Assembly (NCBI GenBank): GCA_951406725.2
Contig: OX597816.1
Coordinates: 92,938,001 to 93,002,000 of the forward strand
Origin: Octopus vulgaris
Taxonomy: Eukaryota
DNA: 64,000 bases
Direction: 5' to 3'
The notes beneath the pieces were generated by a model, which worked only from the letters and a program-made list of their open reading frames with translations, searched no databases and was not told the DNA's origin. The position numbers and the translations under genes were made by a program. Numbering within the stretch: position 1 is the first letter of the stretch; each line of letters begins with the position of its first letter. Shown here piece after piece: positions 11,629 through 61,631 of this stretch.

Positions 11629-11849
11629 CACTATATACTAGTTCTTCAATTCAGCTGTATTATTGGTCTTATTTTAGTGTCCTTTGTCTTAAACTTTTCG
11701 TCACACATCCTGTGACCTTCTCAACGAATCTCCTTCCCACGAGTCTCCTCCTGTCCTGTTTAGTCTATGTAATGGACGACAAATTTAAGACAAAGGACAC
11801 TAAAATAAGAACAATAATAAAACTGAATGAAGAACGAGTATATAGTGCG
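11629..11849. mobile_element. Short fold-back element (~75 bp inverted arms) with a U3-A8 hammerhead-like motif
   Basis: gcactatatactagttcttca...cttttcgtc is inverted to gacgacaaatttaagac...gagtatatagtgc. Minus strand 11691-11724 reads TTGAGAA-g-gtcac-aggatgt-gtgac-GAAA. Confidence 0.6.
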
Positions 11850-13894
11850 CGTATTTATTTAGCAAAAAAATTTACCATCCCAAAATATATTAATATTTGC
11901 TTTTCAACGCAGGAATCTTGTTAAACAAATACATAAAAGTAAGAATTGAAATTATTTTGAGCAGCAACAGTTTTGATATAAATAATTAGTGCGAAACATA
12001 GTGTAGTGTCTTGAAGATTCAAAAATATGGACTCGAATATTAAATTTGCTAAATCTATATGACAGTGCTTGGTGTTGGGTTGCTTAAAGGTGTGTATTTG
12101 CCTGGCTTCTAATCTAACTTACCTGATATGAGAAATTGCAAATTGGTTTAGCGTTAATACCCTTCTTAGAGATGATTACAAGAAAATTTTTCAGTCATGA
12201 ATGATGTAAATACATGTTCCTTAAAATTTGTCACCCCGTTTGTTGATTAGTAGGAATTATATGAAAATTGTCATGTGACAATAGGAGGATCTCGGAAAGA
12301 AACGGAAAATAGCGTTCTCTGAAGATAATATACTCAAAGGAAATTTGTCTAAATGAAATACTTCAAGATGAAGCCATTAAATTTATTATCATTTTGCTTG
12401 TCCCGTTTATATTGAATTTCAAATTAGTAAATCCAGTTTTAAAAGCTTTAAATCACAACCTTAGTAGATTATTTAAAAAACTTGGAGAGTTGAATTTTAC
12501 ACTACAAAATGTATTAGAGTTTTCTTGTATAGAGAAGCCCAAGCTATATAGAGCATCAAGAAAGTTTCAAAAATATATTTAATCTAGAAAAGGAGGTGAT
12601 TATTAGAAGCAACAATATAAAGTGAAGCAGTGAAATATCATGAAGTTTTGAGGCATATCATTGATGTTCTTTTTTTGCTGTGTAAGAAAAGTAGTATTTA
12701 GTAATTCGTCGCACCAAATCGAGGAGCAAAACAATGGAAACTTCAAAATTGGATCCTATTCTCCAAGTACATGTGCTATGAGTAGAAAGATACCAGAAAG
12801 GGACAACCACCTTCAGTTTTACTGCATATATTTTAGATCATAGAAGAAAAGTTTCATAAGATTTTAACTTTGTGAAGGAATACAATTTACTTGAAAAGAA
12901 ACCTTAAATTTTGGCATTATTATGAATGCAACTTCTACTGACTCCTCGTATGTTGAGCGGACAGTATTTCTCTTACGTTAATTTAAAGGATAGTTGGTTT
13001 AAGGTACAAAAATCATTCTCAAGTTCTCAGGCTGCAACAATAAACTTGGAGAATAATTATTCATAGACACCTTGGAATACTGAATTAATCTTTGGGGCCA
13101 CTGCAGGGCAGTGCAAACTACCAATATGATGACACTATACAATAGATTGCGCCCAAGGCGAAAATACTAAAGCAATTTTCAGTGGTAATCTCTCTCCATG
13201 TGGATGCCATGCACTCTATGTGGAATAAATACAGGTGAGTGTATACTAGAATCCTAATATAATATAGAACAGTTCAAAAAATTTATATATTGTTAAGTTT
13301 CACCCATAATTGGAGAAACTTAAAAATCACATACGTTTTTCATTACACAGTATGCCATATATGCGTAGGTCTACCAGACTTGAAATTATCAAACTTTTTG
13401 AATCTTTCTTTACTGATGTTTAGTTAGCCAAGATAGGGAAGAGAGTGAATATAGTATTTGTATATATAAAATGATTTGTTTGTAAGTCTATGTTGGGTGA
13501 TTCGGTATAAACTATTAGGTCCTACGGATATTTCAACGAGTTCAGTATAACCAGAGAGTCCACATTGGCTGTACATGTATCTAAAATTGGAACAGTTCTT
13601 GAAAATTTGATAAATCTATTAAACTGCTAGGAAAGTAACTAGGATAAAACCAAAGAGTCGAAAGAGAGGAGTTGTTAACCTGATGGAAATAACTGGTGCT
13701 GATAATTTGCCAGAAGAGGCTAGCCTCAGAAAATCTGTATTATACATTTTCATTGATAATATTGTTGCAGATTAATTGTATACTTTAATGTTGTTAAGCG
13801 AATGACTGAAAAATTTAATTCAAGTGAGTGGGGATGACGAATAGCTTACAATGCCTAAAGGTGAGTCGGAGAAAATAAAGAAAGACTTAGCAAA

Positions 13895-14476
13895 TTATTT
13901 TCTACTCTAGGCACAAGGCCTGAAATTTTGGGGGAGGGAGCCAGTCGATTAGATCTACTCCAGTACACAACTGGTACTAAATTTATCGATCCCGAAAGGA
14001 TGAAAGGCAAAGTGGACTTCGGCGGAATTTGAACTCAGGAAGTAAAGACAGACAGAATACCTATTTCTTTACTACCCACAAGGGGCTAAACACAGAGAGG
14101 ACAAACAAGGAGAGACAAACGGATTAAGTCGATCATATCGACCCCAGTGCGTAACTGGTACTTATTTAATCGACCCCAAAAGGATGAAAGGCAAAGTCGA
14201 CCACGGCGAAATTTGAACTCAGACGTAACGGCCGACGAAATAGCTGTTTCTTTATTACCCGCAAGGGGCCAAACATAGAGGGGACAAACAAGGACAGACA
14301 AACGGATTAAGTCGATTACATTGACCCCAGTGCGTAACTGGTACTTAATTTATCGACCCCGAAAGGATGAAAGGCAAAGTCGACCTCGGTGGAATTTGAA
14401 CTAAGAGCGTAACGGCAGACGAAATACGGCTACGCATTTTGCCCGGCGTGCTAATGTTTTTGCCAGCTCGCCGCCT
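13895..14476 (-). mobile_element. SINE family B with a triplicated internal unit
   Basis: Minus head ggcggcgagctggca..ttagcacgccggg. The ~185 bp unit containing gttcaaattcc..gtcgactttgcctttcatcctttcggg occurs three times. Confidence 0.75.
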
Positions 14477-15199
14477 TGAAAGAGTAAGCAAACTACCAAC
14501 CAAATGACCGCAATGAAACTGTTTACAATGTAAATATAACATTAAACGTCAGTACACTAAGCAATTTTTGGAAAACCAGAACGGAAATCTCTAGAACTGG
14601 TGATTTATTCATTAATTGCAAACCGATGATATATTTCAAAATGTTTGCTTTTGAGAATACTGGTGACAATTCATCTATAGTAACATCAGCAGAAAAATTG
14701 CTTAGCTCAGGCTTATGAAATTGTTTGGAAGATCTACCATGCTTTAAACTTGACTTGTTGATTTAGCAAGACTGAGTATGAAATCAAAACATTGCTAGAG
14801 AAATTGATTTGGATGTGTTAGAAATCTAACGGATAAAAGTGTTAGAAAACCTCATTTCTTTTAGCTTCTTAGCCTTATCTTTGCTTTGTATAAAGTATAT
14901 TGTTATCTGGTTATTCTGGTGGACAAGAAATAACGCATTTACATAATTATACCAGTGGTCATATTCAGATAGCCTGAGTTGTCCAATTATGCTTTCATAA
15001 TCATACGAAAAAAGCTTTCTACTTCGTTCATATTTTATCATATTATATCATTATTGTTACTTAAAAGAAGCTGTTTAGGATTTGTCGTCTATTCACTCCT
15101 TTATGCTTAATTTTGAAAAGAAATTCATCTTCCGGAGGAAAGGTGAATAGAAGTGGTTTTGTTACTTAGAAAGCTTCTTTCGCAGGTTTTGATAATATT

Positions 15200-15612
15200 C
15201 TTTTATTCTTTTACTTGTTTCAGTCATTTGACTGTGGCCATGCTGGAGCGCCGCCTTTTAGTCGAACAAATCGACCCCAGGACTTATTCTTTGTAAGCCT
15301 AGTACTTATTTTATCAGTTTCTTTTGCCGAACCGCTGAGTTAGGGGTACGTAGACACACCAACATCGGTTGTCAAGCGATGGTGGGGGGAGGACAAACAG
15401 AGACGTACAAACGTATAACCATATACATACATATGTGTATGTGTGTGTGTTCAACGGGCTTCTTTCAGTTTCCTTCTACCAAACCCACTCACAAGGTTTT
15501 GTTTGGCTCGAGGCTATAGTAGAAGACACTTGTCCAAGGTGTCATGCAGTGGGATTGAACACAGAACCATGTGGTTGGTAAAGTAAGCTACTTACCACAC
15601 AGCCACTCCTAT
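15200..15612 (-). mobile_element. SINE family A
   Basis: Complete copy from head to tail, with central microsatellite. Confidence 0.85.
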
Positions 15613-15619
15613 ATACATA

Positions 15620-15817
15620 GAAACATTAGCACACAGGGCGAAATGCTTAGAGATTTTTCGTCTGTCTTTACATTCTGAGTTCAAATTCCGCCGAGGCACA
15701 CTTTGCTTTTCATCCTTTCGGGGTTGATAAATTAAGTACCAGTTGTGCACTGGAGTCGATCTAATTGACTGTTTCCCTCCCCAAAAATGTCGGGCCTTGT
15801 GCCTGGAGCAGAAAGAA
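15620..15817 (+). mobile_element. SINE family B
   Basis: ttagcacacagggcgaaatgc...gagttcaaattccgccgagg...cctttcggggt, as in the copies at 13895 and 38174. Confidence 0.75.
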
Positions 15818-16082
15818 TTCTTTTACTTGTTTCAGTCATTTTAACTGTGGCCATGCTGGAGCACCGCCTTAAAAGGTTTTTAATCAAAGCAATCGAACCC
15901 AGTACTTATTCTTTGTAAGCCTAGTATTTATACTATCAAACTCCTTTGCCAAACCGCCAAGTTACAGGGACATAAACACACCAACATTGGTTGTCAAGTG
16001 ATGGTGGGAGGACAAACATAGACACAAAGACAAAAACATAAATATATATATATATATATATATATGTATATGTGTGTGTGTG
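15818..16082 (-). mobile_element. SINE family A, 3' half (matching 5' half probably at 20026-20185)
   Basis: Tail and body up to the central microsatellite only. Confidence 0.75.
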
Positions 16083-16084
16083 TA

Positions 16085-16584
16085 TGATAATGACAACAAT
16101 AATAAAAGTGATGATGAAAGCTGAAATATAAATATCTCTGGGAAATGTTTACATTTCTAAAAGTAGCCAAACATTTACTGCTTTGGCCAGGGTCAAAATG
16201 CAGGTCTCTTGACATGTTCAACAAACTGTGATGCCTAAACCAGACACCAATCAACTGAAATAATTCAGTAAAACCACACATTGAATGGTCAGAATACAGT
16301 TTGCAAAACATAACATTCTGGAGCTTATACAAATGTATATAAGGCACACATTTTAACCATTTTCCTACAGTTGTAAATTGTAAAACATAACTGTCACCAC
16401 TACTTCATGAACCTGAAGTTTGCATAGTCTAATGCATGAAAGTACTAGTTCAGTCAGAAAGGACATTTAATACTCTATCATATCATTATATTATATTATC
16501 TTATATGATATTTTCCTTACTGGTGGTGCCCTAGTATGTCCACAGCCTCAAGGCTGAAACATATAAAAGAATACAAGAATAAGA
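16085..16584 (+). mobile_element. Decayed 3' end of a CR1-group LINE
   Basis: Ends tggtggtgccctagtatgtccacagcctcaaggctgaaac plus an aaagaat-type tail, homologous to the 3' end of the intact LINE. The 5' boundary is uncertain. Confidence 0.5.
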
Positions 16585-16715
16585 TTGTAAATAAAACGTG
16601 AAAATCAGAGAAAGTTGGATTTTCTTTGAGTAATATATTCTTCTATACACAATCATACACACCTGTGTGTATATATATGTATAATCAAAATAAGCAACAA
16701 GGATATCCAGAGGTA

Positions 16716-16804
16716 ATGCAGTACGATCGTTTCATGCAACTCCATTTAATTGAACAATGCAATCATTACATCAATTTAAAATACAGAGCAATCTTCAGCT
16801 GCAC
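16716..16804 (-). ncRNA. Minimal type I hammerhead (left arm)
   Basis: gtgcag-CTGAAGA-long stem II-GAA-ACGATCGT-A^ctgcat, with a palindromic stem III. Confidence 0.75.
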
Positions 16805-18560
16805 AAAGGCATAGAATTTAATTAAATTAGAACAGATGGACACATTAGTATAAATATACGTAAAATCTCCAAGAAGTTAAATAGATAGACAAAGAACATG
16901 CTGTTCTTATTCCAGCATAGCAGTTACTAAGCTTTTCAAGAAGATATACATTGTTACAGACTCTGCCTGTCACTGATTTTGTTATTTTTATGGGGTCAGT
17001 TTTAATTTATAGACTAGTTCATGAAAACCTTTGTATCTCTAAGGCTGAGAGAATAGAGGGCAGTACTGTTAGGGGTAGGGCTGAGGGAGCAGACAGACAT
17101 CGTAGTTGGTATAATCATAAAAATCAAGATTTATTAGAAGCAATATCATGAGATTTGGTAAAGGAAAAACTTAAAACAAGATGTTAGCTGACAATTAAGG
17201 GGGTCACCCACTATGAGACCATTGATAATGAAACAGGGGAAGTCTTATCATATAGTTAAATATTTTAAACAATGTTGCTATATTGTATACAGTTAAAGTT
17301 TAGTGTTATTCAGAGGATTATTAAGAAGTATATTATAACAAAAGTATAGAAATTTATGAATACTTTTGAGTATATACCAAACTTTTATCATAATAGAGGG
17401 AGGAAAAGAAATTATCCAGAAACAGTTTAATATTTATACATATTGTACACTTAAATACTAACTCATCAGATGGTATCTGTGAATATTGATTAATTGGCAT
17501 ATACTGGTATTAATAAAGGAGTATTGAGGTAAAGGAACGTTCTAATTATATATTAATAAAATTATAATCTAAGCAGTTTTACCATAGTATTAGTAATTAA
17601 GCTATTTTATTTCATTTTCTATGGTGTTCTGCCCTACTTGATTATTTTATAATTAGCCTTTATTTATTTATATAATTAATCTAACTTTTGTATCTCTATA
17701 AATTCATACTTAGCTTATATAAAACTATACTGGTGTATTCACTACTTATAAAAAACTGCTTAGATTATAATTTTATTAATATATAATTAGCATGTTCCTT
17801 TACCTCAATACTCCTTTATTAATACCAGTAAATACCAATTAATCAATATTCACAGATACATCTGATGAGTTAGTATTTAAGTGTACAATATGAGTTAGTA
17901 TCTGATGAGTTAGTATTTAAGTGTACAATAACTATTTCTAGATAATTTCTTTTCCTCTCTTTATTATGATAAAAGTTTGGTATATACTCAAAAGTATTCA
18001 TAAATTTCTATACTTTTGTTATAATATACTTCTTAATAATCCTCTGAATAACCCTAAACTTTAACTGTATACAATATAACAACATTGTTTAAAATATTTA
18101 ACTATAGTACTACATGATAAGACTTCCCCTGTTTCATTATCAATGGTCTGCTAGTGAGCGACCCCCTAAATTGTCAGCTAACATCTTGTTTTAAGTTTTT
18201 CCTTTACCAAATCTCATGATATTGCTTCTAATAAATCTTGATTTTTATGATTATACCAACTATGATGTCTGTCTGCTCCCTCAGTCCTACCCCTAACAGT
18301 ACTGCCCTCTGTTCTCTCAGCCTTAGAGATAGAAAGGTTTTCATGAACTAGTCTATAAATTAAAACTGACCCCATAAAAATAACAAAATTAGTGACAGGC
18401 AGAGTCTGTAACAATGTATATCTTCTTGAAAAGCTTAGTAACTTCTATGCTGGAATAAGAACAGCATGTTCTTTGTCTATCTCCTTAACTTCTTGGAGAT
18501 TTTACGTATAATTATACTAATGTGTCCATCTGTTCTAATTTAATTAAATTCTATGCCTTT

Positions 18561-18649
18561 GTGCAGCTGAAGATTGCTCTGTATTTTAAATTGATGTAAT
18601 GATTGCATTGTTCAATTAAATGGAGTTGCATGAAACGATTGTACTGCAT
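18561..18649 (+). ncRNA. Minimal type I hammerhead (right arm)
   Basis: gtgcag-CTGAAGA-...-GAAA-cgatt-GTA^ctgcat; cleavage predicted after A18643. Confidence 0.72.
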
Positions 18650-18763
18650 TACCTATGGATATCCTTGTTGCTTATTTTGATTTTAATCACCTTAGTTTGA
18701 AATTGTATGGATAATACTGTACTAAATTCTGGTGCCTCAACTTAAGTACCATATTCATCTGAA

Positions 18764-18811
<48 letters not shown>

Positions 18812-18812
<1 letters not shown>

Positions 18813-20017
18813 ACAGACATGCAGGAAGTAAATAGACACCTTTAATTTTCAAAATCTTTTATTTAATTCACAAATGTAATCGATAAGTAGGACTACCTAC
18901 TTTAGTATTTAGTTGACATTCCCTTTGCAGTTTTTAATTCAGAAACTCATTTTTGCATTGAATGATGAGCTTTGTGATTGTCTCTTGTGGAATTTCTGCC
19001 AACTTTTCATGTAACAATCGAAACAATTCATCTTTAGATTTAGGTTTCTGTCAAGTTTTTCATATAGCTCTATCTAGTATGCTCCAAAGATTTTCAGTTG
19101 GGTTCATGTCAGTAGATTGGCTCGGCCAAGGAAGCTTTTTGATCCCATTTCAGTCAATCATTGTTGATTCCTTTTCGTTGTGTTATATGGGGCCCATCTT
19201 CCATGAAGAAAAACTCATTTTTCGTTATGTTATCATGTGAATACATCGGAAGTAGCCCTCACTTAAGTATTTCAATGTATTTTTTCAGATTTTATGGTTC
19301 CAACACATTCAATCAGCTCAGAACGACCATTGCTGGTGACAGTACCCAATACCATTACAGAGATACTGCCTTGTTTCACAACTGGTTAGAGTCATTTCAA
19401 ATGATATTGCTGATTGGGAAGCCTCCAGACCTAAACACGTCCACTATCTGAAAATAATGCAAATCTGGATTATTCTGAGAAAATCACTCTATCCCAAGAT
19501 GAACTGGATTTTCCTGACATCTCTTTAGCCCATTTCTTTCTTTTCATGATATTAATTGGTTGAAGGAGAGGCTTTCTTCTAACTGCTCGTTCATAATACC
19601 CAAGCTTATGCAGATATGTAACACATGTTCTTGGCTAACTTCTAGCTGTGTTGCAATGTCAGAAGCCTTCGAACGGGTGTTCCTTTTCCACAATTCTGGT
19701 GATTCTTTTCCTTGGCTTTTGAACTGCACTATAATTCTATTAACTGTAGCAAGAGGAATTTGCAGATTTTCGGCAATTTTTGGCTGGCTAAGGCCAGCCT
19801 CAGATAGACCAATAATACAACCTCTTTGAAAATCTGACAGTTCTACTGAATTTTTTGTGTGTGGCATGGTTACTCGTCACAAATGTTTAATATAATGGCA
19901 CCTGGAATGGAAAAGAATAATTACATTGTAAATTCTACACTGCCGAAAACATATCAAGGTGCTTAGATAAGAAATTTTGAAAATGAACAGTGTCTATTTA
20001 CTTCCTGCATGTCTGTG
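18812..20017 (-). mobile_element. Tc1-family DNA transposon with decayed transposase
   Basis: Perfect 28 bp TIRs cacagacatgcaggaagtaaatagacac (18812-18839 and 19990-20017) with TA on both sides. ORF start [28 protein letters not shown] is a Tc1 HTH; the downstream part is disrupted. Confidence 0.9.
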
Positions 20018-20025
20018 TATATATA

Positions 20026-20185
20026 CAACGAGCTTCTTTCAGTTTCCGTCTACTAAATCCATTCAAAAGGCTTTGGTCGGCCTGAGGCTATAGCAGAAGG
20101 CACTTGCCCAAGGTGCCATGCAGTGAGACTTAACCTGGATCCATATGGTTTGGAAGCAAACTTCCTACCACACAGCCTCACCTGC
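20026..20185 (-). mobile_element. SINE family A, 5' half
   Basis: Head through ...gacggaaactgaaagaagc on the minus strand. Confidence 0.75.
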
Positions 20186-20950
20186 ATCTAGTATTTATAC
20201 AAAAATGTTGCATGACGTGTTTTATGGTTACCCAACTTTGAACCATACTGCTAATTAATTGTGTTGCAGTCTAGTTTAAAACAGATAATTATCACATCAT
20301 TGGTCTGCTACAGAAAACTAATAGATTATAAATATAAATTTTATTTTATCATTTTAGCTTTCAAGTAACTTTTAATTTAACAATCATAAAAAAACATATG
20401 AATGAAAAAGAATAAAAGTTGGCAAAGAAAAAACTAAACTTACAGCAGACTAATTATTTCCAAGAAATGAACACTTTGTTGAGGTTTACACATAAAATAT
20501 ATGAGATTATATGTGTGTGTGTGTAAAATTAGAGACACAACAATACTTACATACTCTTTTTTGAATGCATACAAACACACTTATTTGATTTTTTTCTTAT
20601 ACTCGTATATGCAGACATTCTTTTATTTATATGATTTATTTACCTTTGTAATATGTAACTACAAATCCCTTTAAGGGGCAGATCTCTCTTTGATGATAAC
20701 TATAGGAGTACAAGCAAAAATATTCTTGTTGGAATCATGCTATCAAATTGATAGAAATACAATACATGTACCAAGGAAAGGTAAACAAAGCGATAGATTG
20801 AATACCAGTTAAGTACTGGAGTCAGTGAATTAACTTATCTCCCCATTCCCGCCAAAATTGCTGGCCTTAGGCCAAAATTTGAAACTATCATTATTATTAT
20901 CATTATTATCCTTATTATTATTATTATAATTATTATTATTATTATTATTA

Positions 20951-21620: not shown

Positions 21621-21849
21621 AACCGGCTGCACTCGTGCTCATGTTTGTGCTCGTGCTCGTGCTCGATACCAAGAACTCGGCACATAAAATCGCCACTTTG
21701 TGCCTCGTCGATAACACACGGACACACACACTTGTGGTCTTCGTCGTACTCAGACTTACTCCCCGGCAATAAACTGGCTGCACTCGTGCTCGTGTTCGTG
21801 CTCGTGCTCATGCTCGATACCGAGAACTCGGCACATAAAATCGCCGCTT
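21617..21849. repeat. ~82 bp direct repeat pair (151 bp period) containing (CTCGTG)n
   Basis: aataaacyggctgcactcgtgctc...gatacc.agaactcggcacataaaatcgcc at 21617 and 21768. Confidence 0.85.
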
Positions 21850-21923
21850 CCTCTCAACACATAGCTATGATTTTCCCTCCACTACTTCTGTTCATGATTA
21901 GAGGTGCATAAATCATCAGCCAC

Positions 21924-21979
<56 letters not shown>

Positions 21980-21984
21980 GTGCA

Positions 21985-26233: not shown

Positions 26234-26888
26234 TATAACAATTTTAATAAATGCTTGCAAAATATAACCAGTTTCCATTATAGGTGCTCAATGTAAGCAT
26301 CTAAATTTAGGTGGAAAGATTTTAAAATCCTTAAAATGACCATATGAGCTCTTGTATAAGAGAATTACAATGTATAGTCTACAAATATGTACATTTCATA
26401 TGCACTATGTAACAAAAAATTGAAAATGTGTTTATGAAAATGGTTGACATGATATTCAAATTCTTTGAAAAGATTTGAAATCAGCATGCCCAAATTAGCT
26501 AAGTTAGACACTTTCCATGAAAAAGGCAAACAATCATTTTCAAAATCTACCCTAAGAGTACAAATAGAGTCATTATGATTTTCAGTCTAATAACTTAATA
26601 TTCTAGAGTTTGCTACATGTTTTCGCCTGAACTAACCTCTAATTGTGATAGATCTAGACTGTAATCTATATCTTTTAATTCTTTTTGTGATCTTCTTTCT
26701 GCTAATTCACTTGATTTTTACTTCCCTTAATATATGTATAGCAGGATATCCAAATCATTGTTATTAGTTTATTTTCAAATGAATAATTGTCTATTTTTAG
26801 CTTAAAATGCAAATGAATTAATAAACACACAAACATGCACCCAAACAAACAAAAAGGAACGCAGTGTAAATAATGGACAGAGTCAAGA

Positions 26889-26925
26889 CTATTGAAAAGG
26901 TTGCAAGACGCAACGAAAATTTTAG
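26889..26925 (+). ncRNA. Minimal hammerhead variant (U3-A8 core)
   Basis: cta-TTGAAAA-g-gttgc-aagac-gcaac-GAA-AATT-T^tag. The host repeat (~26855-27415) recurs at 61380-61630. Confidence 0.55.
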
Positions 26926-26971
26926 GAAAATAAAAATAAGTCGAAATTTTACCAGTGAGTGTGTTACATTA

Positions 26972-27307
26972 GGGTAAAGACCCCCTTCGGTCATGAATGA
27001 CCATGGGATTGCACCTAGAAAGTTACCCTCCTAGACACAAGTCCGGGCAAGGTTGTTTATGGAAGACCAGCAGTCGCCCATGCATACCAGCCTCCCCTCT
27101 CCACACCACCAGTGTTATCCAAGGGAAAGACAAAGGTTGATACAGCTTGGCACCAGTGACGTCGCAACTCATTTCTACAGCTGAGTGAACTGGAGCAACG
27201 TGAAATAAAGTGCCTTGCTCAAGAACACAACACGCAGCCCGGTCCAGGAATCGAGCTCACAACCTCACGATCGTAAGCTCGACACTCTAACCACTGAGCC
27301 ATGTGCC
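26972..27307 (-). mobile_element. tRNA-derived SINE family C with a 12 bp TSD
   Basis: Minus head ggcacatggctcagtggttagag..gctcgattcc. TSD tgtgttacatta at 26960-26971 and 27308-27319. Homologous to 52207-52492. Confidence 0.88.
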
Positions 27308-27931
27308 TGTGTTACATTATAAGGCACAAAAAGAAAATGACTCTCCCAGGACACAACAGAATATGCTTCAACACACGAACTCATATAAAGAATCTTGCAA
27401 ACCAAATTCAAAAACGAAATTAATAAACAGTCTTAAAAAAAAAATAAATAAATCCTTCAGTAGGTAGCAAAAGTAACTTGTGTAAGAACAATAATAGTTC
27501 TTAGGGGTCAGACTACATGCAATGCTCATAACGTTAAATAAGTGGAGTAGAATTTACAGGCTGAATACTTGTTAAGTGGTAAAAGTATATTTAATACTTT
27601 GAATATTCAAGAGTTAAAGTATGTTCAAATGAACAGTTAAAGTAAATGAATGATATTATTAATTTTCTTCGTGTTTATTCTTTTTGACCACCATTGGAGA
27701 AAACGCCAGATATGCTTAAGACTTATTAAGAATTTTCATCAGAAAGAGAAAATGAAAAACAAAAACTTATAACTTAGCCACTAATTGGGAAAAGTATGAT
27801 ACACAATGCAAGATCAGCTAATGAAATATATACCTTAAATGAAATATGCAAAAGGAAAGGTCACCATTAGCTTTAAAAAGTGTTTGCACATGTGTGTGTG
27901 TATGTGCATGCATGTAGTGTGATGAGGTGTA

Positions 27932-27975: not shown

Positions 27976-30900
27976 GGTTTGCTTATTAAGGATCCAGAAA
28001 ATACCAATAATTCATGACATCACTATCATTTTGAAGAAAGAGATTGTCCAATCCAAATGTATAGAAGGCAGCTTCCAGATAGATAATAAAAAAAAAAAAT
28101 TACAAGCTATTTAGATCATTAAAATATAATGAAAATGAATGTAATTTTTGTTAATTCTAAATTAAGGGTTTAATCTATACTATCAACAGTTGCTATAAAA
28201 TATCAGCAAGCCTTTCCTGTGAGGTATGACATCATTTTGAAGTAATTCATAATGCTATTATCAACACCACACACACACACACACACACACACAGATACGC
28301 ATACATAAATATATATATACATTTATACAAATACCATATACATACACATACACATATATATATATATTCATATTTATATATATATGCATGTGTGTGTATC
28401 AGTTTATATTGAATGGATTAGATGAACTGTGTGTGAAATCTTTTGGGAAGGATACGAAAAAAGGAAAATAATTCGATTGTCTCTGGAAAAGTGAAAAATC
28501 TATTTTATAGAATGCTCATTGATTTAGGTACATATGTACTCAATAAGCACGAAAATATATTTATCACTTGTGAAACAGGTAGTTTGGTTCTAGTCAGGCA
28601 AATGAAGAAGAGATAAATAAGAGAGAGACAGATGTACCAACAGAATGTAAATTTGAATAATTTTTGCTAATGTTATTCTACATATTGTCAGCATTTGAGT
28701 CTTGGAGATTTGTGGTATTTGTTCTATTTTTCTGATCTCAGTGTTCAAAATAATACTTTTAACATGGGCCAAATGGGCTGCAAAAATCATACAAAACAAA
28801 AAGACAATGAGAATTTATATATATGTATATCAATAATAAAATAATAAGAAATTTAGTAAAAATAAAATTCTCCAGTAGTGGAGAATACCATCCAGAGGTA
28901 ATCAATAGATCCCACAGAATCTGGGTCAAACTGATACCAGGAGGCATCCTCTCTCATCTGTTCCCTCCAATCTACCTTAGAGTTCACCCATTGGGCCCAT
29001 TCTCACCATAGTCACCCACATTTCAACAAATTTACAGGATGGTGAGCAGCAATTCCCTGTCTACCCTTACCTGCCTTTTGAAGTGGGATTTCAAAATGTC
29101 AGTGAGGGCTTAGCCATAGACAAAAGTATGTCTTTAGTCTTTTCAGTCTTGTTCACTACTTAGCCTCTTACACCATAACCAACAAACAGAGTAAAGCAAG
29201 GTCAGTTTTACCACTCTTCATTTTGGGGCTGGTTGACAATGCTGTGTCAATTATTTTCTGTCTGTCTACCTGACTGTCTTTTTTCTCCCTCTCAGAAGCA
29301 GCCATGCTGAACTGTGAAAAGATCCAACAAGAGCACATACAGCATCCATTTCTCCAGAAATGGAGACAGGTTGTACAATCTTTACCCACAACAAAAATTG
29401 ACTTGTTATTAAAACCATCCAAAACTGCTTGATGTGATGTAGAACAAGGAACAAAAATTAAGAATAATTAAGAAGATATTAAAGTTGTCAAGCAAGACTA
29501 GAGTAATTAATCAGAAGTTTAGTAGATCAAATTAACTGATATTTCTAATGAGGTCCATGTTAACACTATCGTTAAAGGTCAGAAAGATAAAGAATAATTA
29601 CTGATGTGGAAAACATAAAAGACTAAAACTAATAGAGCATAAAATGAAAGTAATAGAATAGCTATTACAGAACATAAAACCATCTGTGACGGCCTTATAA
29701 TCTATAAGTCAAGCTATTATTTTCAGATCAGAACAAAGATGACTCTAAGAAACTTATTGTTTTATTAATTCCAGCAACTAATTTCATTATGTGTTTTTAA
29801 ACAATAAAAACCATGTTAACCTCTTGAATATATTAAAGTACCATTTAGTTATTAAGAAAATGATATTGAGCAGCTTGTATTTTGACAACTTAAACCTTGT
29901 ATAGGATTATCATCATTAGGAGCTAGGATTTGTTGTAATGATTTTAGTGAAGATGGTTAGTGGGGATGATTGCTTTCCAGTTTCTGATAGTAGTTGTCAA
30001 TTTGGGTAGATGTGATAATGATAATTTATGTTAGGTATAAACTTTTAAGGAGGGAATTTTGTTGATTAAATGGATCCATGAAATCTGTGACTGATGTGTG
30101 CAGAATTTATTAAAGAACTTTGATTTTTAAGAATGTTGTGCTAAAGTAATCTTGCATATCGCTAATTTGGTACAAAATAAACCTGGAGCATTATTTAGCA
30201 TTTTGCTTTCCATTTTAAATAAATAGTCTACCAGAACTCTCTTGTTTGTTTGAGATGTTAAAATCATTTAGTTGATGTTTTGTACAAAGTGAAGTTTTTG
30301 AGCTTTGTCAGCTATTAGTGTAGTTGACAAAGTGTTTCGCTACTTCAACTGTTGAATTGTTATTGTGAATCTAGGAAACTAAATTGGTTTGCACATTGTT
30401 AAAGGTTGTGGTATCCAGTATGATGCACTGAAAAGGTTGGATGATACTATCATTCATTGTGACTACTGAACACTGTATAGAGGCGTTGCCATATATGCAG
30501 ATTTTAAAGGCAATGAGAGGGTCTTAACAAACTTAAGGAAAGCAGATGGAGTAAGTTTGTAACTTGTATCTGAAATGTAGTCAGTGAAAATTATATGATG
30601 TTTTCTGTGGATGTCTAGAGTATTTAAATGATATGGAATAGAAATGGAAACTTAGTAACTGATAGATTTTCCTTTTTTTATATAAATGCAATATTCATGT
30701 AGAAAAGCTAAAGAGAATAGTTTTTGGCAAGCAATAATGCCACTTTGGGCTTATTTCATAGCTTGTGGTTCCACCTCAAGAAATGCACACTGTTGTTCAG
30801 TGATATAGTACTGAAAAATATACTATCTATCATTATATATTCATTCATCTTTATAATGAAATGTAGTTTCTATATTTTCAGACTGAGTAGTTCTCTTGAT

Positions 30901-31090
30901 ATTTTGTGAAAATTTTAGGCAATAAGATGAGATGCATAGCAATAACATTTGAAGCATTTCACTATGAAGAGAGCCCATTATCAAATTAACAATGTATATT
31001 ATTATATTTTTTAGCAATAAAAAGTTATGTATTAAGCTGTGAGTTCCATATTAAATTGTTCTGGCATGTCTAGTTTTTTTATGTGCATAC

Positions 31091-31137
<47 letters not shown>

Positions 31138-32359
31138 AAGATAAAGTGAAACAGACAGACAGGCAGAAAGTAGGCATTCATTGTTATTGACAGAAATTGA
31201 TCCCTATAAGCCTGAGTGTAAATATAGAGGAAGATAAATTTCACTGCTTGATTTATTGGTTTATAAAGATTATGTTCATATCAGGAATAAATAATAAAGA
31301 AAAAACATAGTTTCAATAACTGGATGTAAGAAGACAGCAAAAATATGTCAGAACTTTCTCAAAAAAAATTGAACGTTAGTTCCATTGAATATTATTTGTA
31401 AATATTTTCCTTTTATATTTAAATATGTTATCATATTTATATTGAATGCAGTTTTTACAGAAAATACCTATGGGCAATGTGTCTTAGTGATTTACTCAAT
31501 AAATATACATCAAATATATCACTCCACACATTTTTAGCTTTCAACTTACCAAATGTGTCATTTCACAACTTTTTATTCTTTAGCTTATCTAAAGGTTTCT
31601 TTTTCATCAAATCATTCCTTTAAACTATTATCAATCTTTATATTTCTTGTTTATACAATATCCTTTCACTGATTTTAAAATTATATGAAAGATATTTTTC
31701 ATGCATTAAACAGAGATATCATTAGCTTATAAAAATAGTCTCAAAATATTGTTTGTTCAAGCTGTCGCGGGCTGGATGAGCTTGCATAAAAATAAAATAT
31801 ATCCACTCATTCCCTATCTGCCATAATTTACTTTAGAAGGCTAACACACAAAAACTTAATGCAGCATTCTCGTCATTTATATTTACTAACACATTCTGTT
31901 AACTGAATATGGTAGTTCTCATCCAACAAATCTCATTGTACTACTCATCCATAGAACCATAATAATATTTTTTTCCATATAACCTTAATGTGGTTTTCAT
32001 GAGACAGGTTTGTTAAAGTCAATAAAAAATAGCAATTTTCAGATTGATGTCATTTTAGAGGATAAAACTACGCTTCCTAAAAGAAGATACCACAGAAAAC
32101 ATAAATATGCTTTAGGTTTGTAGAATGGAGTCAGTAGATTCAAGAGAGAATTATTTATTTTACTAAAGATATAATAAAGGAGAAGAAAGAAGGAAGGTGA
32201 GAAAGCCACATAGAGAGCTGGAGGAAACTTGATGACAGAGTTGTGAATGAACAGAACTTTTAAAGTGTTCTGTTAGTTTAAAGAGATACAACCTGGCCTG
32301 TTGATGCTTGTTGATTTGATATTTCATCCATTTGTGTTACATTACTGAAGACAGCTTTC

Positions 32360-32488
32360 ATGACATTGGGCTATGTGTGTGTCAAGTTTCATCAGAATCG
32401 GTTGAAAGCCGTGGTCAGGCTGAGGGTACAACCTGACAGACACACAGACACACACAGAGACAAACTGCCGTTTATATATAGAGAGATA
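32360..32488 (-). mobile_element. Non-autonomous Helitron fragment
   Basis: Near-identical to 43628-43753, the 5' TC end of that element. Confidence 0.7.
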
Positions 32489-32690
32489 TACATGCTGTAA
32501 ATATTCTGGCTTCTTCCTTCAGTGCTTGTAGGTAGACTGAGTTTATAAAAAGTACACTTAAGTATTACAACTAGTCAAATTAGCAATTTTAGAAAATTTG
32601 TACACTATAACTGGTGATTTAATATCAATAAAGGAAACTCTTATGCAGATTGATACCATGAAGATGTACAGTTCAAATCTGTAATGTGTC

Positions 32691-33223
32691 TTACTCTTTT
32701 ACTTGTTTCAGTCATGTGACTGTGGCAAGGCTGGAGCACCACTTTTAGTCGAGCAAATTGACCCCAGGACTTATTTTTTGTAAGCCTAGTACTTATTTTA
32801 TCAGTCTCTTTTCCCAAACCACTACATTACAGGGATGTAAACACACCAGCATTGGTTGTCAAGCGATGTTCGGGGGACAAACACAGACACACAAACATAC
32901 GCACACACACACACACACACATATGTATATATATAAAGTTAATCCAAACAAGAAAACACAGAAAAAAGAAAAAAACACAGCAACGCAGGACGTGGAACAA
33001 TTAAAGTATTATTGATGCTCAGGAAAGAAGGGAAGGAGGGTTTAACGTTTCGAGCATACATATATATATGTACGATGGGCTTCTTTCAGTTTCCATCTAC
33101 CAAATCCACTCACAAGGCTTTGGTTGGCCCAAGGCTATAGTAGAAGACACTTACCCAAGGTGCCACACAGTGGAACTGAACCTGGAACCATGTGGTTTGT
33201 AAGCAAGCTATTTACCACACAGC
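32691..33223 (-). mobile_element. SINE family A with a ~120 bp foreign insert (32935-33055) in its microsatellite
   Basis: Both halves are present. The insert ends in a truncated HHR-like half (minus strand gctc-GAAA-cg-TTA). Confidence 0.8.
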
Positions 33224-33669
33224 TGGGGTCATTATTTACCCATGATAAAAAGCAATAGAAAACTTCTGAAATGTAGCCATTGTCAAGTTTAGATATGGAA
33301 CCTAATTGGAAATTGATGTTTGGAGAGGTGACCAAATGAAATAACTAAAATTGTATAAAAGATATTTTATTATAGATTTAAAAAAAATATGCCATTAGTT
33401 AATAGAAATAAAGTTTCACAATTTTAATGTTATTTGTTAAAGCTGATGAGGGCTGGTTGAGTGTACAACAGTAAAATATATCGATTTGTTTGAAGCATAT
33501 TAAGAACGAGTCAACTTACATGTGAGAAAACCAATCCAGATAAAAGAATAATTAAGTCATGTATGTGTGTGTGTGTGTGTATACATGTGTGAGAGTGTAT
33601 GTGTGTGTGTGTGTGTGCATATGTATGTACGTATAGATGCATACATGTATATATATATATATATATAAA

Positions 33670-33990
33670 CTTTGGGCAAGTGTCTTCTACTATAGCCTCG
33701 GGCAGACTATAGCCTTGTGAATGGATTTGGTAGATGGAAACTGAAAGAAGCCCGTCATATATACATATATATATATATATATATGATGATGATGATAAAT
33801 ATATATATATATATATATGAGTGTATATTTGTATGTCTGATTCTGTCCCCCACTATCATTTGACAACCAATATTGGTGTGCTTATGTCCTTGTAATTTAG
33901 CGGTTCGGCATAAGGAACCGATAGAATAAGTACTAGGCTTACAAAAAAGGTGGTGCTCCAGCAGGGCTGCAATCAAATGACTGAAACAAA
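33670..33990 (+). mobile_element. SINE family A, 5'-truncated
   Basis: ttgggcaagtgtcttctactatagcc...ggtgctccagca..caaatgactgaaac. Confidence 0.8.
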
Positions 33991-35257
33991 AATATATTTA
34001 TGCATGTATTCATGCATGTATATATTTTATTTTCAAGAGTCCTGTAGTTTTAGCTAACATAATATTTCACATTTTCTAAACATAAATTCGTTTGTTTGCA
34101 GAGTTCTTTTATTATATTTGCGAAATATTTATTCCTGTTAATTACTAAAGTACTAATTTCTGTAATTTGATTTTGAATTATTTTTTTATTAATAACTTCA
34201 TTTAATACAGCTTCTTTTTGTTAATCATTGTACAAGCAAACAGTCAGTAACAGAATTCTCATTGCTTTTGGTTCCTGTCATTTTTTTTCCAGGGCTAATC
34301 ACTATATTTTACTGAATTGGTATAAAGCTGTGAATTCCTGCTAAGGTTACCTTTTCTTTGTTATTCACTGTTTGTTCTTTTACAACTGCATTTATTAAAA
34401 ATACAAGCTCTCATATGAATGAAATATATTTAATATTGATATATTTCTGTTTTTAATTATTAGATTTTTCTCCACAAGTAAGGAATTGACTTCTAACACA
34501 AAAAGAAAAACAAGACACCATCACTGGAATTTGGTTAAGAAGTTAACAGCAATGAGTATTATATGCAGGATTTGGAAAAGTGTTTCAGATTTTAATGTTC
34601 CCCTTATAAGTTGTGTTTGTAAAGTACATGCTAAATGGCTGCAATATGTGCTCAAAATTTCTAGCTTTACCAGATGATTTTGATATTGGTTCATTTCACA
34701 TCAAAAGATGATTACTGTTGGCTGAGTCATGTGATATACTTCTCATTGGTCTACTCAAAACGCTGTAAATAAAGTGGGTATTGAATTCGCTGTTTGGTAG
34801 AGCGAGAGTGCTATGTAACTGCGGTGGGATTGTTGTTTTATTAAATTCATACAAGGTAAGTCTAGGAGAGTACTGTGCATTAAAACCCAATTCAAATCCA
34901 TTGTGGTGATGTGTGCATGTGAATGTAGTGTAAAGGAGGGAATTGATGCATGAAAATGCAGAGAAAAAAATTAGGAGCATGCAGGTAAATATTCAGAAAT
35001 CTCTACCATCAGAGTAAAAAATGGTCTTGGAAATATAACTATAGAAATAATTGTTGCTCAAGAAATCTGTTATTTTCTTTTGATGAAAAATGGACAGAGA
35101 TAAGAGGCTATAGGAAACAAAAAGGAAATCAAAAAAGCCCTCTCTACTAATAAGAAAAAGAATGGACTTCAAGATAAGGCTAGAAAAATACATGTGGTAG
35201 AATCCGTTTTTGCCATGCTGGACTGAAGTTCACATTTTTCGCAAAAGACACGAAATA

Positions 35258-35479
35258 CAGTAATCCTTCAACTATCACAGGTGTTACATTCCCAAAACCC
35301 ATGCGATAGGTGAAAATCTGCGAAGTAGAAACAGTACTGTGCTGTTTACTTTTTTTTTATTATTTTCATGATTTGTATATATTTATTTTATTATAAATGC
35401 AAAAAGACACCACGGAGGAATTAACAAGCTTAAATAATAAACTGCGATAGGTGAACCGTGATATGGCAAGGGACTACTG
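35258..35479. mobile_element. MITE (Tigger/pogo-like ends)
   Basis: TA-cagtaatcctt...aagggactactg-TA, with a subterminal repeated tgcgataggtgaa. Confidence 0.7.
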
Positions 35480-36099
35480 TATGAACTGACAGATGATGAA
35501 AGTACTAGTCATGTGTTAACTGAAATCCAACCTTTCAAGCATCTGAGTGATAGGTTTCTTGTAAAATCATGCAACCAATGTATGAATTGCAATTACTGTA
35601 CATTATAATCACGGGGATTTCATGCCCAGTCCAACAAAGTCACTCTTAGATATAATAATTTTAAGATCCAGCAAAATGAGAGTGTTGGGGGATACGGTAA
35701 TCCAATTTCACCCTGGGGTGTTCACCCATGTGTGTATGTAGGCGGAGGTTACCCTACCTATTTTTCCTGCACTTTTTAAACATTGTTTTACTTTTGTATG
35801 TTTTATATAACTTTACATTTATTCTGTGTTTGATTTATCAGTTCTTTAGAAAGGTTCTTTATTCGTATTCATATAATTTTGTCTTGTCCATCTTTCATAT
35901 TTTGTAAGCCACGATACTTTAATATGTATTCTTTTTATGAATTCTTGACTGATAAAGAACAAAGAAATATTTTTTATTGGATTAAGAAATTACTATCCTT
36001 ATTTGAACCCCAAAGGATGAAAGGTCAACTTCGCCTGTCATTCTTTTGTAGGTTAGTAAATGAAGGTGAAGTGAACCCGTCAAGGCAATTGGTCTAGGA

Positions 36100-36569
36100 T
36101 CAGTATGGAGGCCAATTTTTTACCATATCAAACATGACATTATCCACAAGATCCCAGACTTCATTCGCCCTCTGAGAGGGAAGGAACCACATATTACGGT
36201 TGAGGGCAGAAGGCCTCGGTGCTACCTGTGTATGGAGACTGGCCACTTGAAATCTTTCTGCTCTTGACAGAAGATAGAATATCACAAGAGTCCCTTACTG
36301 CCAACACCAGGTGACCAAAAGCCACAATAACAAAACTATCAGCGACCAAGAGCAAAAGTGGTACCTGCCCCAGCAGCAACGGCAATAACATGAACAGCAA
36401 AACTACCAACTGCTGGAACAACACTAACGCCAGCAACAACAGAAGCACTAGCACCACCAGCAACTCCAACACCAGCAGCAGATACACCACAACCACCTTC
36501 AACAGTACAAAGAAAAATAACGGATATTGAAACACCCAGGGGCTCTCCCAACGATTCTCTCTCTCCTTC

Positions 36570-36605
<36 letters not shown>

Positions 36606-37965
36606 CGTTTCTTCTAAACACAAACACAGCCTTTCGCACAAACACAAATACACTTTCACCCGTATCCGAAAGGGTTTCCACAGATACTTCTGCATCACGA
36701 AATGAAATGAAGGGAACTCCCAAAACCAAAGGAACTAAAACTAAAACACAAAAAAAACATCATGCCTCAACCCAACACACACACCAAAAATAGAAAACTC
36801 ACCCACTACAATCACAGACATATCTACACCAACACCAACTTTTCCAGCAACATAATCGTTAGCACATCACCATTACCACAACAACAACAACCCAATAGAA
36901 GAAAAGACACTCAACAAGAACAACAAACCACCCAAACACAAAACTTTGTGCTAGTGAGGAGGACCAGTAAAGAATTGATGGCCCTCATAGCACGAAGTAA
37001 GGACATCAAGACACAGAGTGTGATCTTCGGTACCAGCACCTTTCAAATGCCAGAAACACCGATGATGGTACGTGTGCCACTGGAAACTTATATAAACATT
37101 AGGGAGAACCTCCCCCACGACGTCGATCCCAAATTTGTGGTTTGGACGGTCAACTGAGACAGGATCCATTGTCAGGGCCCCAGATACTGGAAATTGAACA
37201 TGTCTATCTCGGTGCGTCAAGCTTTCAGAGACCGAGTTAGCAAGTTATTCTATCGGAAGTTGTCGGGGGTATTCGTTAACAACCGATGGTGGAGACCCTA
37301 AAAGAGCGGCTATCAGTATAAAGGTTTAGAAAAGAAATAGCGTTAGAGGTGTCTAGAATATAGGGAAGCCTAGTTAGGAAGCTAGAAGCATAATGACCGA
37401 CATATTGACGGCGCGATTGGTTCTTGATCAATTCTTCAATACTAAGTACACAGGTTGCGCTGCTAGAGCTTGGGCGCGTGTTCTAAGATACGAGGGAACG
37501 AAAGCAGTTCGACGGGCCCGTTGGAGAGGGTGTATCTCCAGCGTTTCCTTGACGGTGAGCAGGTGTGGTCGCCGTTTGTCAGATAGGAGTTCCTGCAGTT
37601 CGTCTCATTAACGGACTTGCAATCCTTGATCAAGAGTAGACCGAGGCAAGGTGTTTGGCACTTTGAAAGCTGGCAGACGCTCACAGCCTTCCATCAGGCG
37701 GGTAATGCGGTGAATTAAAGTTCCATCTTGGAGTTCTATAGGAGTGCAAGAGCGATAACGTTCTTGGGGAATATCTAGATATCAGGAGAGATCAATTAAA
37801 CGATGGATAATTTCCAGAAATCCCTGACCTAGCAGTGCTGCCGGGGAGCTCTGCTAGTTTGAGATAAGCTCTACAGGCACAGAAGTGCTGTCAAACGGAA
37901 CTGTCCGAGATGCGCGCAGAGCGATGAAACGTTCTGCATGCACTCGTCCAGTATCCGGCCATTAA
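36100..37965 (+). mobile_element. Decayed, internally deleted L1/Tx1-type LINE
   Basis: Gag knuckle EGRRPR-CYLCMETGHLKSFC (CX2CX4HX4C, 36220-36261). ORF2 C-terminal relic MDNFQKSL..RGAL...CPRCAQSDET.LHALVQ (~37803-37952). GC content is elevated. Confidence 0.7.
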
Positions 37966-38007
37966 TGATTTGTGGAGCTTTGTCGAATTATTATTATTAT
38001 TATTATG

Positions 38008-38054
<47 letters not shown>

Positions 38055-38173
38055 CATACCACTACGTTCCAGTGAAACACTGGGATTGATGTAATCGACT
38101 AACCCCCCCCCTCTCCCTAAATTTCAGATCTTGTGCCTATAATGGAAAGGATTATTATTATTATTATTAACAA

Positions 38174-38388
38174 GACGGCCAGCTGGCAGAATCGTTAGCA
38201 CACAGGCCAAAATGCTTGGCGGCATTTCGCCCCTACGCTACTTTCTGAGTTCAAATTCCGTAGAGATCGACTTTGTATTTAATCCTTTCGGGGTCGATAA
38301 ACTAAGTAGCAGTGAAATACAGGAGTCGATGTAATCGACTAGCTCCCCCTCCCCCCAAATTTTGGGCTTCGTGCCTAGAGTAGAAACG

Positions 38389-38390
<2 letters not shown>
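38174..38390 (+). mobile_element. SINE family B
   Basis: ggccagctggcagaatcgttagcac...gagttcaaattccg...tagaaacg followed by an (att)n tail. Confidence 0.78.
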
Positions 38391-38475
<85 letters not shown>

Positions 38476-38775
38476 GACGGTGGTGGTGGTGGCGGCGGCA
38501 GCAGCAGCAGCAGCAGTAGAATTTGCTGTTGTTGCAGTAGTGTTAGTGGAAGAAGAAGAGGATCAAGAAGAAAAGGAAGACGAGGTAACTTTTATTCTCA
38601 TTTTACTTGTTTTTTTTTTTATATTTCTGTTTCAACATTTTTATATGAGGTTTTTAGGTATTCCTAATTTCTTAGCTTGCTTTTGATCGAATCGTTATCC
38701 AAGCAATTTTTTTTAAATGTTTCCTCAGGCAGATTCTTTGCTCAAATATGTGTCACGAAAATATTTTGAATCTGG

Positions 38776-38825
<50 letters not shown>

Positions 38826-38835
38826 GAGAGAGAGT

Positions 38836-38873
<38 letters not shown>

Positions 38874-39017
38874 TACAGACAGAGACAGAGACAGACAGAC
38901 AGACAGAGACAGACAGAGAGACAGAGACAGAGAGAGAGAGAGAGACAGAGACAGAGAGAGACAGACAGACAGAGAGAGAGAGAGAGAAAGAGAGAGAGGA
39001 GTGAGGGAGGGAGGGAG
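38776..39017. repeat. (GA)n/(GACA)n compound microsatellite
   Basis: Seen directly. Confidence 0.95.
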
Positions 39018-39187
39018 AATGGGGGATAATGTGGAAGGAAAGAAAATATCACCTATTACCAATGTTGCTATTGTTATTGTTATTACTGCTGGTGAAGATG
39101 ATGATGATGATGATGGTGATGATAATGAGAAGGAGAAGAAAGTAGTGGAGATAGAAGGGAATGACTATTTGAGAATTTAGTTATATA

Positions 39188-39582
39188 TTAGCAGTATCGC
39201 CCGGCGTTGCTCGGGTTTGTAAGGGAAATAATTATATAAGCATTTTTAGAGATGTAAAGTATAATAGCCATCTCAATATGGCTAACCACAAAGGGGGAGG
39301 GGTGTTACTGTAGCTTTTTACGTTCTGAGATTTAATAATAAATTTTAGAGAGTTACTTCCCTTATATATGTCAAAAATGGATTAAAAATGGGAAAAATTG
39401 ATGGTAAATTTTTTTTTAAATCGTAGACTCATCGTAGACGCGCGCTAATACCCAGACGGTCTCGATATGAATCACGACTATAAGATACCCGGTTTTGGTT
39501 AAACTGCACCGCAAAATGTGGGAGTAGTTAGGAATCTAAATCGTAGGAGACAGACACACAACCTCACTTTTATATATAAAGA
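39188..39582 (-). mobile_element. Non-autonomous Helitron
   Basis: Minus strand starts A|TC and ends with hairpin cccgagcaacgccggg then gatactgCTAA. The 3' end is shared with the 43381 element. Confidence 0.7.
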
Positions 39583-39645
39583 TTTCCTCTATTTACATAA
39601 TATTGAGGTCTCTTTCTTTCTTTTGTTATCTTACTGTTTTTACCA

Positions 39646-39696
<51 letters not shown>

Positions 39697-39704
39697 TATA
39701 TATA

Positions 39705-40029
39705 GTTACAGAGATGTACTTGCATAGCAAGTGACTTGATCTGAGATCGTGTGCTGGAACGAAAACAGTTGCAGCGTTGAAGGTGTTTATAAGCCATTTA
39801 AGAAACACACAAAAACCGTTAGATTCACTTCAACATTTAAATTTAATTTGTCAAAATATTTTCGTCGCTTTGAGACCGCGACCTGTTAGCACGATATTTT
39901 TGTCAGTGAACAGGTCGCGGTCTCAAAGCGACGAAAATATTTTGGCAAATTAAATTTAAATGTTGAAGTGAATGTAACGGTTTTTGTGTGTTTCTTAAAT
40001 GGCTTACAAACACCTTCCACGCTGCAATA
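39705..40029. mobile_element. Fold-back element (119 bp arms) with a G3-C8 hammerhead variant
   Basis: Arms 39769-39887 and 39909-40027, flanked by TA repeats. HHR variant at 39900-39948. Confidence 0.7.
39900..39948 (+). ncRNA. Minimal hammerhead variant (G3-C8 core)
   Basis: ttgtca-GTGAACA-g-gtcgc-ggtctcaaa-gcgac-GAA-AATATT-T^tggcaa (tgacaa in the mirrored arm). Confidence 0.65.
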
Positions 40030-61630: not shown

Positions 61631-61631
61631 A

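Follow-up and report, generated by a model that had tools for sequence, protein, structure and literature searches.

Penelope-like elements of Octopus vulgaris carry hammerhead motifs with exchanged 3–8 core pairs

When positions 3 and 8 of a hammerhead core have both changed and still pair, has the ribozyme been compensated or has it decayed? A stretch of 64,000 nucleotides (nt) from the genome of Octopus vulgaris (GenBank assembly GCA_951406725.2, contig OX597816.1, positions 92,938,001 to 93,002,000 of the forward strand; hereafter the window, numbered from its first letter) raises this question at three sites. Site 1, at 11.7 kb, has the core UUGAGAA at 11724–11718 on the minus strand, followed by an extra G, a 6-bp stem II and GAAA. 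Site 2, at 26.9 kb, combines the core UUGAAAA, an extra G, stem II GUUGC/GCAAC, GAAA, helix III AAUU, U17 and stem I CUA/UAG; site 3, at 39.9 kb, combines GUGAACA, an extra G, stem II GUCGC/GCGAC, GAAA, helix III AAUAUU, U17 and a 7-bp stem I. The original prediction, made from the letters alone, assigned these cores to three unrelated elements; its letters and coordinates proved correct on re-reading, and our scan recovered all three motifs. Judged by sequence, all three are minimal type I hammerhead ribozymes (min-HHRs) of the pseudo-long terminal repeats (pLTRs) of Penelope-like elements (PLEs), and they belong to one clade.

The window was scanned with the pattern N3-UGA-N-N8-A, an optional extra base, stem II and GAAA. 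Five matches had a stem II of at least 4 bp, and exactly three, sites 1–3, joined a stem II of 5–6 bp to a paired 3–8. Across 200 local shuffles, a non-canonical Watson–Crick 3–8 pair with a stem II of at least 5 bp was expected 0.145 times per window, versus the three seen; with the extra G required, the expectation was 0.01 per window. No hammerhead family appeared among 139 matches at E ≤ 5 in an Rfam scan of the window, which bears out the expectation that standard searches miss these motifs and could also be taken as a sign of chance look-alikes in AT-rich repetitive DNA. That second view is scarcely credible, given that site 2 and site 3 each have over 1,000 exact copies in the 2.8-Gb genome and the reversed-pattern controls none, that the stems covary, and that the motifs sit in pLTRs, where PLE hammerheads are known. 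Two matches turned up in a strict motif scan of 200 kb, sampled from nearby stretches and at even intervals, a number too small for a survey. A protein labelled Octopus vulgaris at its source agrees with this genome at 100%.

Fragments of a GIY-YIG endonuclease lie upstream of the motifs in all three families, here called F1a (site 1), F2 (site 2) and F3a (site 3). The motif is located in the pLTR, on the same strand as the PLE open reading frame (ORF) and 0.5–1.2 kb behind its GIY-YIG end. In F3b, a 1,025-amino acid (aa) ORF with reverse transcriptase (RT) motifs, a CX3CX2C linker and GIY-YIG accompanies a G3–C8 motif; F2 has a 665-aa open stretch with a U3–A8 motif, and F5, a young member of the F1 group, has intact 1,312-aa ORFs that are 99% alike. 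A single ORF with RT, a CX2-5CxxC linker and, at the C terminus, GIY-YIG with CCHH characterizes endonuclease-bearing (EN+) PLEs of the Neptune/Nematis type, for which that linker is defined in PMC8557442; the octopus ORFs have the same layout. The F2, F3b and F5 proteins share 54–61% identity and formed one clade (Shimodaira–Hasegawa-like approximate likelihood ratio test, SH-aLRT, 100), with F3b outside F2+F5 (99), in a quick tree that took in 40 homologs without family names. Tandem pLTR–ORF–pLTR copies (loci L253 and L431) bear two same-strand hammerheads at a spacing of ~4.3–4.6 kb, the first of them shortly before the start codon; at L253 the distance is 4,261 nt and the ATG lies 57 nt past the predicted cut. 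A non-LTR retrozyme was considered as an identity for the motifs and rejected: no tandem array lay over any of them, and copies were dispersed and tied to RT–endonuclease ORFs.

The notion of three unrelated elements, each with an independently compensated core that works as a ribozyme at its locus, accordingly keeps very little probability. All three cores are 3–8 paired as written, and above chance. Set against this, their pLTRs and proteins are homologous within a single PLE clade with two swap events, site 1 is a product of decay (see below), long hairpins are predicted to enclose sites 1 and 3, and within the window none of the three has a partner copy close by on its own strand.

A fixed exchange is seen among the relatives of site 3. 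With positions 3 and 8 left free, F3a yielded 1,148 matches (reversed-pattern control, 0), the first 100 of which comprised 95 G–C and no C–G cores. F3b, a family reached through its protein, yielded 1,870 matches, with G3–C8 in 98 of the first 100 and C3–G8 in none; at 30 loci found by protein alone, 25 of the 27 copies covering the core had G3–C8. The older F3c, with a pLTR ~72% alike and helix III AAUU, had G3–C8 in 6 of 11 copies and no C3. Stem I measures 6–7 bp in F3, and F3a and F3b share helix III AAUAUU and U17. As far as sequence can tell, G3–C8 is fixed in three subfamilies with ~3,000 copies, one of them young and with intact ORFs, and this core is likely a new natural variant that is predicted to cut slowly. 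These family counts leave out the output of a first search with site 3, which gave only passengers of a ~2.1-kb non-autonomous element whose ends we take to be Helitron-like from the hallmarks of Helitrons. Such passengers account for 13 of the 30 F3a copies sampled and include the copy in the window; they are not independent. Copies of the 2.1-kb element are 92–99% alike, have captured the inverted F3a pLTR pair together with a 107-bp tandem repeat, and in some cases stand head to tail.

Site 2 belongs to a family with a different fixed pair. F2 gave 1,072 exact genome matches with positions 3 and 8 free (reversed-pattern control, 0); the first 100 comprised 90 U–A, 8 C–A, 1 G–A and 1 U–U, with no C3–G8. 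U3–A8 was present in all 23 F2 copies covering the core at 30 loci found by protein alone, and in 12 of 13 matches of the sister family F2b, which has helix III AAUU like F2, a different N7 and a covarying stem I (UCCA/UGGA, 4 bp, versus CUA/UAG, 3 bp, in F2). Site 2 is thus a member of a fixed U3–A8 family, a variant that, like the palindromic helix III, the extra nucleotide and U17, is already in print for schistosome PLEs. Within F2, C3–A8 made up 8 of those first 100 matches versus 1 each for other changes at 3 or 8, which may reflect a subfamily or a mutation hotspot.

Site 1 has another history. The 30 best relatives of this copy had the canonical majority core CUGAAGA. All 50 genome matches of F1a, from a search with position 3 free and positions 7 and 8 restricted to A or G, were counted by eye as 33 C–G, 9 U–G, 4 C–A, 2 U–A, 1 G–A and 1 G–G; the two U3–A8 copies compare with 1.5 expected under independent decay. 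The window copy diverges by 11.6% from the F1a column majority, has lost the symmetry of helix III (AAGUUU), has A17, lies inside an inverted repeat and lacks a proper stem I, a weakness that had been conceded at the outset. Because the family core is canonical and U3–A8 occurs at the rate of independent decay, the swap at site 1 reads as the decay of an ordinary hammerhead, and the argument that random decay would not change both positions and keep the pair breaks down here. Accordingly, the proposed hammerhead layout with a palindromic helix III survives for sites 2 and 3 and not for the site 1 copy, and a double change with the pair kept is fixed in the families of sites 2 (U3–A8) and 3 (G3–C8), while site 1 is a decayed canonical core. 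Free drift at positions 3 and 8 of the family consensus, named beforehand as the sign of a spurious core, is seen for site 1 and is absent for sites 2 and 3.

Across the families, the majority state at 3–8 was C–G in five, U–A in two, G–C in three and U–G in one old mixed family, with none unpaired, some family sets having been picked by core pattern and two stray rows coming from other families in the same loci. Genome-wide, double-changed cores with N7 other than A gave 509 matches versus 19 for the control; the first 100, counted by eye, were 50 G–C, 32 U–A, 6 G–U and 12 unpaired, hence 82 Watson–Crick. N7, a free position of the hammerhead core, varies among A, C, U and G in double-changed cores. 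In 11 hand-picked representatives, one row of which is the decayed site 1, all 66 cells of 3–8 and stem II paired, two-sided changes occurred in three of the six pairs, and G10.1–C11.1 was present in 11 of 11, with two-sided changes at 10.3 and 10.4. Stems I and II, the palindromic helix III and U4-G5-A6/G12-A13-A14 are kept across families while the letters change, and in the F2 and F3b copies located through protein matches alone, U4, G5, A6, A9, G12, A13 and A14 are retained with a pairable 3–8. We found no A3–U8 family in the genome (129 matches versus 130 for the control, the matches being decayed F2/F3 copies or noise), and in four contig sets, whose labels may denote the same or close species, other letters at 3 or 8 nowhere reached 5%. 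Since PLEs in general have C3–G8 (53 of the 56 rows in print), the simplest reading is that U3–A8 and G3–C8 arose as two separate swaps.

We lean towards the explanation that these are PLE-clade pLTR hammerheads whose 3–8 pair became fixed as U–A in one lineage and as G–C in another, with selection for a slow self-cleavage of the element's RNA, aided by dimers or protein, as the likely reason that it stays paired. In a tandem pLTR–ORF–pLTR transcript, the palindromes of the two hammerheads would pair with each other and the RNA would be cut 3′ of U17; cutting would trim or release the unit RNA, and slow cutting would leave most inserted copies to derive from uncut RNA. The same-strand tandem copies at L253 and L431 permit such dimer dependence. 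Published min-HHRs cut weakly and as dimers (PMC4209133, PMC6765202), and an engineered C3G/G8C double mutant regains part of the cleavage in one PLE hammerhead, a ribozyme dependent on its element's protein (PMC11167929), and is a partial rescue in other hammerheads too (PMC8495972).

Several observations weigh against this explanation. In F5, the youngest intact family among the sisters, A9C is present in all 53 motif copies and in 95 of the first 100 of its 3,342 genome matches; fixation of A9C indicates that an element can spread without a textbook core base. The shuffle test on the 11 representatives is inflated by their kinship. There are only two independent swaps, and both would stay Watson–Crick by chance about 1 time in 9. 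The old, mixed family F4 (L371–L400) has U–G as its commonest 3–8 state (10 of 23), possibly an intermediate between C–G and U–A. A wobble pair between G3 and U17, which would be inactive, is predicted with P = 0.67. No loop I–II contact was identified, with loop II varying freely among subfamilies and no systematic search for such a contact having been made. The extra base between positions 9 and 10.1, present in all families, is a G, and an extra G at this place (9a) is reportedly harmful in a viroid hammerhead. It occurs in 1 of 56 published min-HHRs. Finally, only 1 of 71 sampled copies, from F5, starts at the predicted cut.

The copy starts bear on both sides of the question. No pile-up of 5′ ends at the predicted cut was found in the 71 copies of F3b, F2 and F5. 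For F3b, 21 of 30 copies begin 43–61 nt upstream of the cut, 11 of them at 57–58, several F3b loci being two arms of one insertion; for F2, 13 of 20 begin ~31–47 nt upstream, offsets that run one base high. Because the boundaries accumulate before the motif and not at the cut, uncut RNA appears to be the source of most inserted copies, as would be expected of slow cutting in dimers only and equally of no cutting at all. The F3b pile-up spot (L253:6960–6985) resembles a branch point with a pyrimidine tract and YAG (TAG in F3b, CAG in F3a), and is also initiator-like; it may be a start site or a splice acceptor. In F5, hammerheads lie at L431:4644 and 9232 (G000:C17:6327000+), and the older sister F1c has A9 and C17.

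An account with the same PLE origin and dispensable cleavage, in which what is maintained is a folded RNA element (for protein binding, splicing, translation or as a 5′-leader promoter signal) and drift tolerated within that fold produced the swaps and A9C, has a substantial though smaller claim. It draws on the fixation of A9C in the largest and youngest family, on the single copy starting at the cut and on the 9a base being G. Mutating the hammerhead of the anole PLE had no effect on in vitro insertion, and no RNA reads ended at the cut (PMC11167929); Naiad PLEs spread without canonical hammerheads (PMC8557442), and published min-HHRs cut poorly (PMC4209133). It sits less well with the 3–8 pair itself, which is established to form only in the catalytic tertiary fold, yet is paired in every family majority. 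Likewise, F2, F3b and F5 agree in all their unpaired catalytic bases despite the divergence of their proteins, and the F2 and F3 pLTRs cannot be aligned by BLASTN. A9C is moreover recent, as the sister F1c, 90% alike to F5, retains A9.

A special tie of U17 to the swapped cores was rejected as a strict rule, as the C3–G8 families F1d and F5 also have U17. It is possible that U17 is permissive for G3 by avoiding a G3–C17 pair, by analogy with C3–G17 in PMC3884650.

Much of the architecture described here is known. Cervera and de la Pena 2014 (PMC4209133) describes ~1,300 U3–A8 motifs in Schistosoma mansoni, the pLTR location, the extra base, the palindrome and a dimer model, so neither the dimer layout nor U3–A8 nor U17 is novel. 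Its Figure S3, with 56 rows, has U3–A8 in 2, U3–G8 in 1, G3–C8 in 0 and, counted by eye, U17 in 24; the UUU triplet that had been called unusual is therefore common, and the Crassostrea min-HHR has the same AAUU with UUU. The octopus motifs resemble those min-HHRs in their pLTR site, short stem I, 5–6-bp stem II opened by G10.1–C11.1, extra base between 9 and 10.1, palindromic helix III with A15.1–U16.1 and frequent U17; S. mansoni family 4 (Cercyon variant) shares the UUGAAAA core with F2, and Saccoglossus has U3–G8. They differ in having G3–C8, in an extra base that is G where the published consensus is H, and in the joint presence of C–G, U–G, U–A, G–C and A9C in one clade of a single genome; the available PMC4209133 list is without a cephalopod. 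Anole Poseidon PAc (Frangieh et al. 2024, PMC11167929) likewise has a pLTR hammerhead near the start codon and inserts mainly uncut RNA. In PAc, of the Penelope/Poseidon clade, G3–C8 is a laboratory mutant, whereas in the octopus it is the natural state, in elements whose proteins carry the CX2-5CxxC linker. Natural 3–8 covariation to U3–A8, as in F2, was reported by Perreault et al. 2011 (PMC3088659), whose available text names neither G3–C8 nor A9C. In sum, PLE min-HHRs, one false case and one published variant leave a lineage-wide natural G3–C8 and the A9C sister family as the remainder. Neither natural G3–C8 nor A9C was found in print, where Lunse, Weinberg and Breaker (by its title reportedly on dimeric small hammerheads of PLEs with short helix III), subscription papers, figures and supplements may bear on the matter.

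The role of hammerheads in PLEs has been described as still unclear (PMC8557442), and the only PLE active in vitro inserts without need for cleavage (PMC11167929). Young intact octopus elements differ naturally at positions 3, 8 and 9, so that PLE hammerhead function becomes testable with natural sequences. We tentatively propose, short of even expectation, that one clade holds a natural allelic series of C3–G8, U3–G8, U3–A8, the G3–C8 inversion on an intact young element, and an A9C family outgrowing all others. Should G3–C8 and U3–A8 dimers cut and A9C not, natural compensation at a catalytic pair would be demonstrated, and the same genome would show PLE spread after loss of cleavage, settling whether the hammerhead is of use to a PLE or simply a passenger. 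The G3–C8 core, in print so far found only as an engineered rescue, would join the natural core variants. CUGANGA descriptors miss thousands of motifs per genome.

The copies in the window are probably inert remnants, one decayed, one solo and interrupted, and one trapped in a hairpin within a different element, and individually they likely have no role of their own. The predicted cuts after U17 fall at 26922 (site 2) and 39942 (site 3); in its context, site 3 has a predicted probability of 0.00 for stems I and II, the hammerhead being sequestered in the hairpin.

Table 1. Positions of the hammerhead motifs and their carrier elements in the window.
Feature	Positions	Strand	Basis
Site 1: min-HHR of PLE family F1a, canonical (CUGAAGA) in the family and decayed in this copy	11696–11724	−	Family alignment
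F1a pLTR remnant (~11577–11768, −) with inverted partial arm (~11775–11889); predicted long hairpin	11577–11889	−	Fold prediction, pLTR comparison
Site 2: F2 min-HHR; U3–A8 core 26892–26898, extra G 26899, stem II 26900–26914, GAAA 26915–26918, palindrome AAUU	26889–26925	+	Scan, family, fold
F2 solo pLTR remnant, interrupted (~26972–27307) by an inserted repeat flanked by duplicated TGTGTTACATTA	26833–27420	+	pLTR comparison
~2.1-kb non-autonomous element carrying site 3; 5′ TC, 3′ GC-rich hairpin then CTAG, TA runs at flanks	39182–41283	−	Copy alignment
F3a pLTR pair, inverted; 119-bp arms, 21-nt loop	39664–40028		Inverted-repeat and fold analysis
Site 3: F3a min-HHR; G3–C8 core 39906–39912, extra G 39913, stem II 39914–39932, GAAA 39933–39936, palindrome AAUAUU, 7-bp stem I	39899–39949	+	Scan, family, fold

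Further hammerhead-related sequence was present. A fourth hammerhead-like motif at 58–91 (minus strand) has a canonical CUGAUGA core, an extra U and a 5-bp stem II, with stem I and helix III not evident. At 61314–61633, an F2-type pLTR remnant forms an inverted pair that ends inside the GAAA strand, the core being gone; Rfam scores a microRNA-like hairpin there, below threshold. Other canonical min-HHR families occur in the genome (L096, L033, L217, L255, L413, L240 and L268), for example with CUGACGA-A and a 4-bp stem II. The window also contains an apparently intact two-ORF long interspersed nuclear element at 6196–10085 (plus strand) with a 313-aa ORF1, a 1,039-aa ORF2 of the apurinic endonuclease (APE)–RT type and an (AATC)n tail, a large inverted repeat at 16680–18685 with 589-nt arms at 96% and 177-nt inner arms, and a Tc1/mariner-type transposon at 46008–47604 whose terminal inverted repeats measure 190 nt and whose transposase frame is split.

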